Source of the DNA: a virus
Lineage: Duplodnaviria > Heunggongvirae > Uroviricota > Caudoviricetes
Direction: 5' to 3' (one strand)
DNA: 64,000 nucleotides
Virus record (IMG/VR): IMGVR_UViG_2563366974_000010
Shown here: in pieces, positions 63,547 to 64,000 of the stretch
Layout: each line of letters begins with the position of its first letter
How positions within the stretch are numbered: the stretch's first letter is position 1
Notes under the pieces: model-generated
What the model was told of the DNA's origin: nothing
The model's input: the letters and a program-made list of their open reading frames with translations, nothing else
Database searches by the model: none
Translations under genes and position numbers: made by a program

Positions 63547-64000
63547 ATGAACGCAAAAATCAAATACGGCCTGTCAGCTGCAGTTCTGGCGCTGATTGGA
63601 GCAGGCGCATCAGCTCCTCAGATACTTGACCAGTTTCTGGATGAAAAAGAGGGTAACCACACTACGGCATACCGCGATGGTTCCGGCAACTGGACCATCT
63701 GTCGGGGGGGCCACGATGGTGGATGGAAAACCCGTTTTTCCCGGTATGAAACTGTCGAAGGAAAAATGCGACCAGGTCAACGCCATTGAGCGTGATAAGG
63801 CGCTGGCATGGGTGGAGAAAAACATCAAAGTGCCATTGAGCGAACCCCAGAAAGCGGGGATCGCGTCATTCTGTCCGTACAACATTGGTCCCGGTAAGTG
63901 TTTCCCGTCGACGTTTTATAAACGAATTAATGCAGGTGATCGCAGGGGAGCGTGTGAGGCGATTCGCTGGTGGATTAAGGACGGTGGCAGAGACTGCCGT
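63547..64000 (+). pseudogene. SAR endolysin (GH24-like), interrupted by frameshift in G7 tract; continues beyond window
   Basis: N-terminal SAR-like hydrophobic segment and E-x8-D-x5-T block; frame breaks at G7 run 63704-63710; reading with 6 Gs restores lysozyme-like C-terminus (EAIRWWIKDGG). Confidence 0.55.

Follow-up and report, generated by a model that had tools for sequence, protein, structure and literature searches.

The window, as we call the whole stretch of 64,000 nucleotides analysed here (IMG/VR record IMGVR_UViG_2563366974_000010), closes within a lysozyme gene of a prophage. Positions 63547-64000 on the plus strand hold the 5' 454 bp of an rrrQ-like SAR endolysin pseudogene of about 535 bp; the gene runs past the window end and, judged from the 535-bp copy in strain S88, is expected to finish near position 64081. 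From about 40.3 kb onwards the window consists of E. coli chromosome with the genes yciB, yciC and ompW, followed by a lambdoid prophage inserted beside ompW. The prophage genes are arranged in the order integrase, excisionase, exonuclease, dicB, ydfABC, repressor/Cro, replication genes, hokD, DUF968, RusA, antiterminator, methyltransferase, three tRNAs, esterase and lysis cassette. The tRNA genes are situated at 58751-59000, upstream of the esterase, and have the anticodons CAT, TCG and TCT; the first was classified as tRNA-Met by ARAGORN, while the identical gene of S88 is a tRNA-Ile in RefSeq. The window up to position 40350 or so belongs to a second, unrelated prophage, with its nearest counterpart in strain 20A24 (99.5-99.7% identity, partial coverage) and a cargo that includes an anti-CBASS Acb1-family protein, a PBSX-type terminase, a Y-family polymerase and an acyltransferase. 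As this prophage borders directly on the 3' end of yciB, the short yciB-yciC-ompW segment lies between two prophages.

The prophage next to ompW was 99.8-99.9% identical to that of S88, APEC O1, ATCC 11775, UTI89 and NU14, which we take to be ST95 strains. The exception was a different 2.6-kb module at 60010-62642, which provides a full esterase of 653 amino acids with the architecture DUF1737-SASA-DUF6645 (NanS-p-like; ORF 59976-61937), where the relatives (S88, UTI89 and others) hold a 301-bp remnant. Mismatches at the module borders were clustered at 60010-60122 and 62604-62642, and on either side, at 55233-60009 and 62643-64000, the window was identical to S88. These border-only clusters between identical flanks indicate a recombinational swap of the module. 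The exact arrangement of 60010-62642 was present in no complete E. coli genome of the collection, and the contigs returned for the exact truncated lysozyme product described below had only the S88-type arrangement with the esterase reduced to a fragment. In comparison to seven related strains, eight SNPs were private to the window (45092, 46733, 46742, 46745, 47800, 50691, 50694, 52281). They fall partly in two tight clusters, which suggests small recombination patches rather than point mutations. The window is a somewhat separate member of the lineage that carries the interrupted lysozyme gene.

The lysis cassette starts on the plus strand with an intact phage-21-type class II holin of the pinholin family (62639-62854), which matched PF04971 'Bacteriophage P21 holin S' with 112.5 bits as well as PHROG holin families and is annotated as class II holin in S88. 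A predicted gene of the ydfR family (DUF1327; PF07041, 148 bits; phrog_406) follows at 62859-63203 on the same strand, between holin and endolysin. The minus strand carries within the cassette a conserved ORF of 90 amino acids (63169-63441), which overlaps the last 35 bases at the 3' end of ydfR, is annotated as WP_001351274.1 in relatives and matched phrog_2411 over its full length (E 5.5e-55); a Pfam match was not obtained for this ORF. In relatives, a spanin-type 'lysis protein' (PF03245) comes after the lysozyme gene. The pinholin gene lies 0.7 kb upstream of the endolysin on the same strand, the genetic pairing characteristic of an R21-type SAR endolysin. The cassette of the lambdoid prophage adjoining ompW is of the phage-21 style, with pinholin, ydfR and endolysin.

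The lysozyme gene and its frame break

Seven Gs occupy positions 63704-63710 in the context TGT CGG GGG GGC CAC, inside codons 53-55 of the lysozyme reading frame; the intact allele has six Gs at this site (G6 in the following, in distinction to G7). The reading frame from the ATG at 63547 is cut off after 80 amino acids by a stop at 63787-63789 (codon 81), so both the run and the truncated ORF lie exactly where the preliminary description of this DNA had placed them. The product consists of 54 native residues, comprising the SAR domain and the catalytic residues E35, D44 and T50, and of 26 out-of-frame residues. The lysozyme frame is lost after Gly54, and no single polypeptide spans the whole catalytic domain. 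Reading one base later yields ...GATMVDGKPVFPGMKLSKEKCD...EAIRWWIKDGGRDCR, also rendered as ...GATMVDGKPVFPGMKLSKEKCDQVNAIERDKALAWVEKNIKVPLSEPQKAGIASFCPYNIGPGKCFPSTFYKRINAGDRRGACEAIRWWIKDGGRDCR, which is free of stops to base 64000. Gene callers start this downstream frame at an ATG at 63716 (63716-64000 in the window, plus strand); it covers the remaining lysozyme fold and, in complete copies, amounts to a fragment of 121 amino acids that has neither the SAR segment nor the catalytic triad. The earlier proposal that one G fewer restores a lysozyme C-terminus was borne out to the last residue available: with one G removed, all 151 codons present were identical to the intact lysozyme of 177 amino acids, WP_000992052.1 of strain NU14. 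The run by itself is statistically unremarkable, with one G7/C7 run observed in 64 kb and 5.5 expected from shuffles. Its significance lies in the frame break relative to the more than 1,000 homologues with G6.

The intact, repaired protein of 177 amino acids matched the phage lysozyme family PF00959 with 85.7 bits (cut-off 22.3), while the product of 80 amino acids had no Pfam match at E<=0.01; on this ground the window carries a pseudogene of the PF00959/GH24 family, not a working member. By sequence, the intact protein matched the solved structures 3HDE and 3HDF (phage 21 endolysin), 4ZPU (E. coli RrrD) and 7M5I (another endolysin), with E values of 1e-15 to 1e-16 for 3HDE/3HDF and 4ZPU. 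The alignment to R21 begins at residue 9, within the N-terminal membrane segment. The SAR-like N-terminus recognized in the preliminary description held up in this comparison: K4 and K6 precede the weakly hydrophobic residues 7-27 (YGLSAAVLALIGAGASAPQIL), 52% of which are Gly, Ala or Ser, and the peak Kyte-Doolittle window of 19 residues begins at residue 9. From hydropathy and the alignment with the N-terminus of R21 (3HDE), a SAR transmembrane segment is predicted for codons 7-27 (63565-63627, plus strand). Cysteine is absent from residues 7-27. The lack of a regulatory Cys in the SAR segment sets the R21 type apart from that of P1 Lyz, and residues 7-27, rich in Gly, Ala and Ser, fit the former. 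The E-x8-D-x5-T block, likewise reported before, is present as E35-x8-D44-x5-T50 upstream of the break (codons 63649-63651, 63676-63678 and 63694-63696) and superimposes on the corresponding residues of phage 21 R (3HDE). The gene is thus assigned, by homology, to the signal-anchor-release (SAR) endolysins of the RrrQ/R21 type.

Occurrence and descent of the G7 allele

Across the segment 63400-64000 (601 bp), including the seven Gs, 34 complete E. coli genomes matched the window with 100% identity, among them S88, APEC O1 and ATCC 11775; G7 is the state of 34 of the 130 genomes with at least 99% identity over these 601 bp. The type strain has been assembled twice, in separately deposited records that differ in length (CP033092.2, AP043894.1), and has G7 both times. 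An 80-mer centred on the G run was found exactly in 34 records; the other matching records, about 1,048, were non-identical, and all 58 genomes sampled from these span 79 instead of 80 bases, that is, G6. Direct reading of fetched loci confirmed G7 in S88, JCM 20135, ExPEC XM, APEC O1 and 19AR1321, as well as in five of the NCBI, Logan and ENA contigs with the exact product of 80 amino acids, and G6 in four loci (NU14, O18, PMV-1, UTI89). RefSeq labels the gene 'lysozyme, frameshifted' in all six G7 genomes whose annotation was read and has an intact CDS in the G6 genomes. The exact product of 80 amino acids was encoded on 185 contigs (NCBI, JGI, ENA, Logan) and had index entries in 402 blocks of the collection. 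Contigs with the exact downstream fragment of 121 amino acids numbered 304, those with the intact protein at least 1,000. The R genes of two isolated phages, Stx2 phage 86 (95.4% identical DNA) and H-19B (89.4%), also have the G6 span. From these comparisons, G6 is the ancestral and functional state.

To follow the descent of the allele, 50 kb were aligned from seven strains, four with G7 and three with G6. The same split was obtained at eight parsimony-informative sites, one of them the G run, hence G7 co-segregates with seven other sites; no site of this alignment robustly contradicted the split. At window position 51242, the window and the G7 strains have an A, the G6 strains a C. Four outgroup prophages (92.9-99.5% identical) have a C at this site, thus the A is derived. 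Among all complete genomes, the 80-mer with the A state occurred in 32 records, all of them within the 34 G7 genomes. The combinations G6/C, G7/C and G7/A were seen, the combination G6/A was never seen among the complete genomes searched. Such a nested pattern is what single mutations inherited vertically would be expected to produce. Two G7 genomes, 19AR1321 and 19AR0253, lack the exact 80-mer with the A. 19AR1321 has a C at the site equivalent to 51242 and G6-type bases at two terminase markers; its late region has diverged from the small terminase gene onward (locus L019, 16339 onwards). The two strains may represent either early, basal branches or a second independent insertion, and 19AR1321 would leave room for at most one extra slippage event. 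The exact placement of the window in the clade depends on two shared derived characters, given its private SNPs and the swapped module. An independent origin of G7 in the window, raised by the unmatched region 60010-62642, was set aside in view of the swap signature and the shared derived A at 51242.

Further lesions were located in the large terminase gene of related prophages, outside the window: S88 and JCM 20135 share a deletion of one A (loci L003 and L005, both 43245-45172), and ExPEC XM has a separate deletion of one G (L006, 43244-45171). APEC O1 and every G6 strain examined have an intact copy. These frameshifts look like a stepwise decay of late genes and would fit a relaxed selection on late functions in the G7 clade. 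The preliminary description had offered as one option a genuine inactivating mutation in a cryptic prophage. The mutation is supported by the 34 genomes and the clade marker, but the term cryptic is somewhat too strong for a prophage that is nearly full-length in relatives, where further frameshifts accumulate.

Two other options in that description were a sequencing or assembly error and a slippage-prone tract. Homopolymers are classic sites of indel errors, and an erroneous consensus would mean that the true sequence of the window has G6 and an intact gene. An error of this kind is effectively excluded: 34 genomes finished independently of each other share the identical G7, as do read-based assemblies from Logan and ENA and 185 contigs, and the window also has the linked derived A at 51242, which it shares otherwise only with G7 genomes. 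A random error would have had to hit by chance on the very allele that is natural to the clade of the window. For the G7 allele as such a consensus error is excluded, and for this window, whose seven Gs are taken as real from the identity with its relatives, it is very unlikely. The slippage-prone tract was supported as the likely origin of the mutation, but not as a site of ongoing switching. In a contingency locus, G6 and G7 would interchange at a useful rate and toggle the lysis competence of the prophage within populations. Both alleles do occur among very close strains, two G7 genomes lack the linked marker and may reflect a second event, and other homopolymer indels are present in the same prophage. 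However, the alleles are distributed in a nested manner that agrees with the clade, with the marker A in no G6 genome and no G7 among the roughly 1,048 other genomes. A phase-variable tract should vary in length within lineages independently of the phylogeny, and this was not observed; the nested distribution likewise gave no support to recurrent slippage. A tract of seven nucleotides in a mismatch-repair-proficient E. coli is also shorter than typical phase-variable tracts. We strongly doubt, thus, that the run acts as a switch.

Some full-length endolysin could also be made from G7 by recoding, through ribosomal +1 slippage on CGG-GGG-G or through transcriptional slippage. A +1 re-pairing of tRNA-Gly from GGG at 63706-63708 to GGG at 63707-63709 would indeed give the exact wild-type protein, but a stimulatory context is not evident: the next in-frame codon, GGC, is not a stop and is not rare in the codon usage of E. 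coli, and a separate upstream Shine-Dalgarno-like element was not found. Programmed frameshifting would moreover show in a shift site kept in functional homologues together with stimulators, and the roughly 1,048 E. coli genomes as well as the listed phages have an in-frame G6; among the isolated-phage matches listed G7 was absent, all of them spanning 453 or 450 bases and not 454. That G7 is a derived state found in a single clade, and that further frameshifts in late genes came after it, argues against selection to maintain phage production. We give recoding hardly any credence. The comparisons yielded no evidence of ongoing switching or of programmed recoding. A weaker form, in which the G7 allele is not fully dead, is also very improbable: an occasional reversion from G7 to G6, or a low rate of +1 slippage by tRNA-Gly on GGG-G, would restore endolysin in a rare, stochastic, lysis-competent subpopulation, while most induced cells would only be depolarised by the pinholin. 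If residual endolysin were true, its setting would be a prophage of an extraintestinal-pathogenic E. coli lineage.

Inherited loss of function and relation to known endolysins

The disabling lesion stands against intact orthologues and is shared by descent, as in an inherited pseudogene. With high confidence we regard the locus as a true loss-of-function allele of the endolysin gene, inherited vertically, that probably arose by a slippage mutation in a decaying prophage. The ancestral gene encodes a GH24 lysozyme of 177 amino acids with an N-terminal SAR domain, of the type of phage 21 R and E. coli RrrQ, which would work together with the adjacent phage-21-type pinholin. By analogy with phage 21, the enzyme would be exported by the Sec system and kept inactive in the inner membrane. 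Depolarisation of this membrane by the pinholin would then set the enzyme free in the periplasm, where it would degrade the cell wall. In a lineage of E. coli, the G6 tract of codons 53-55 was lengthened by one G, most likely through replication slippage, from which a +1 insertion in a tract of this kind is to be expected. Translation then leaves the lysozyme frame after Gly54 and stops after 80 amino acids, with a loss of about two thirds of the fold (residues 55-177); what the product retains is the membrane segment together with E35, D44 and T50. The G7 allele has since been passed on by descent, with other late genes beginning to decay in some descendants. The lesions formed by the phage 21 pinholin are too small for a cytoplasmic enzyme to pass, therefore the loss of the SAR endolysin should abolish lysis by the prophage; on its own, a G7 prophage should not be able to lyse its host. 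The induced cell would nevertheless be killed once the holin triggers.

The SAR/GH24 family, its mechanism and the same allele as a frameshifted pseudogene are already in public records, and nothing in this locus is unexpected; a literature search returned nothing specific on this frameshift or this prophage. Beyond annotation the finding has little importance. The proper label is "pseudogene, frameshifted" and not two small lysozyme ORFs. G7 is not an error to be polished, as a correction to G6 would remove a genuine marker of the lineage, a convenient single base for a sub-lineage of the group with S88, APEC O1 and the E. coli type strain. For the ompW-adjacent prophage of G7 strains we predict an inability to lyse the host unaided, which is relevant for judging prophage inducibility in these pathogens.

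Among known systems, the pseudogenes ECS88_RS07990 (S88), APECO1_RS06800 (APEC O1) and ACZ5HM_RS04195 (JCM 20135) represent the same allele with 100% identity over 601 bp; these strains differ from the window in the upstream esterase, which is a DUF1737 fragment there and the full protein of 653 amino acids here. The RrrQ-type gene for WP_000992052.1 in UTI89, NU14, O18 and PMV-1 belongs to the same prophage at the same insertion site next to ompW and has identical DNA over 63400-64000 except for one G, but with its G6 it encodes the intact protein of 177 amino acids. The endolysin R genes of the Stx2-converting phage 86 and of H-19B, both isolated lambdoid phages, are homologous and, unlike that of the window, intact. 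R21 (3HDE in the inactive, 3HDF in the active form) and RrrD of DLP12 (4ZPU) share with the gene described here the GH24 lysozyme fold family, a Cys-free N-terminal SAR segment rich in Gly and Ala, E35, D44 and T50 at the same positions and a phage-21-type holin as partner. They differ in sequence, which is only distantly related (E about 1e-16, 62-63 bits against 3HDE and 4ZPU), in the ydfR gene and the opposite-strand ORF that are inserted here between holin and endolysin, and in the frameshift after residue 54 of the window copy.
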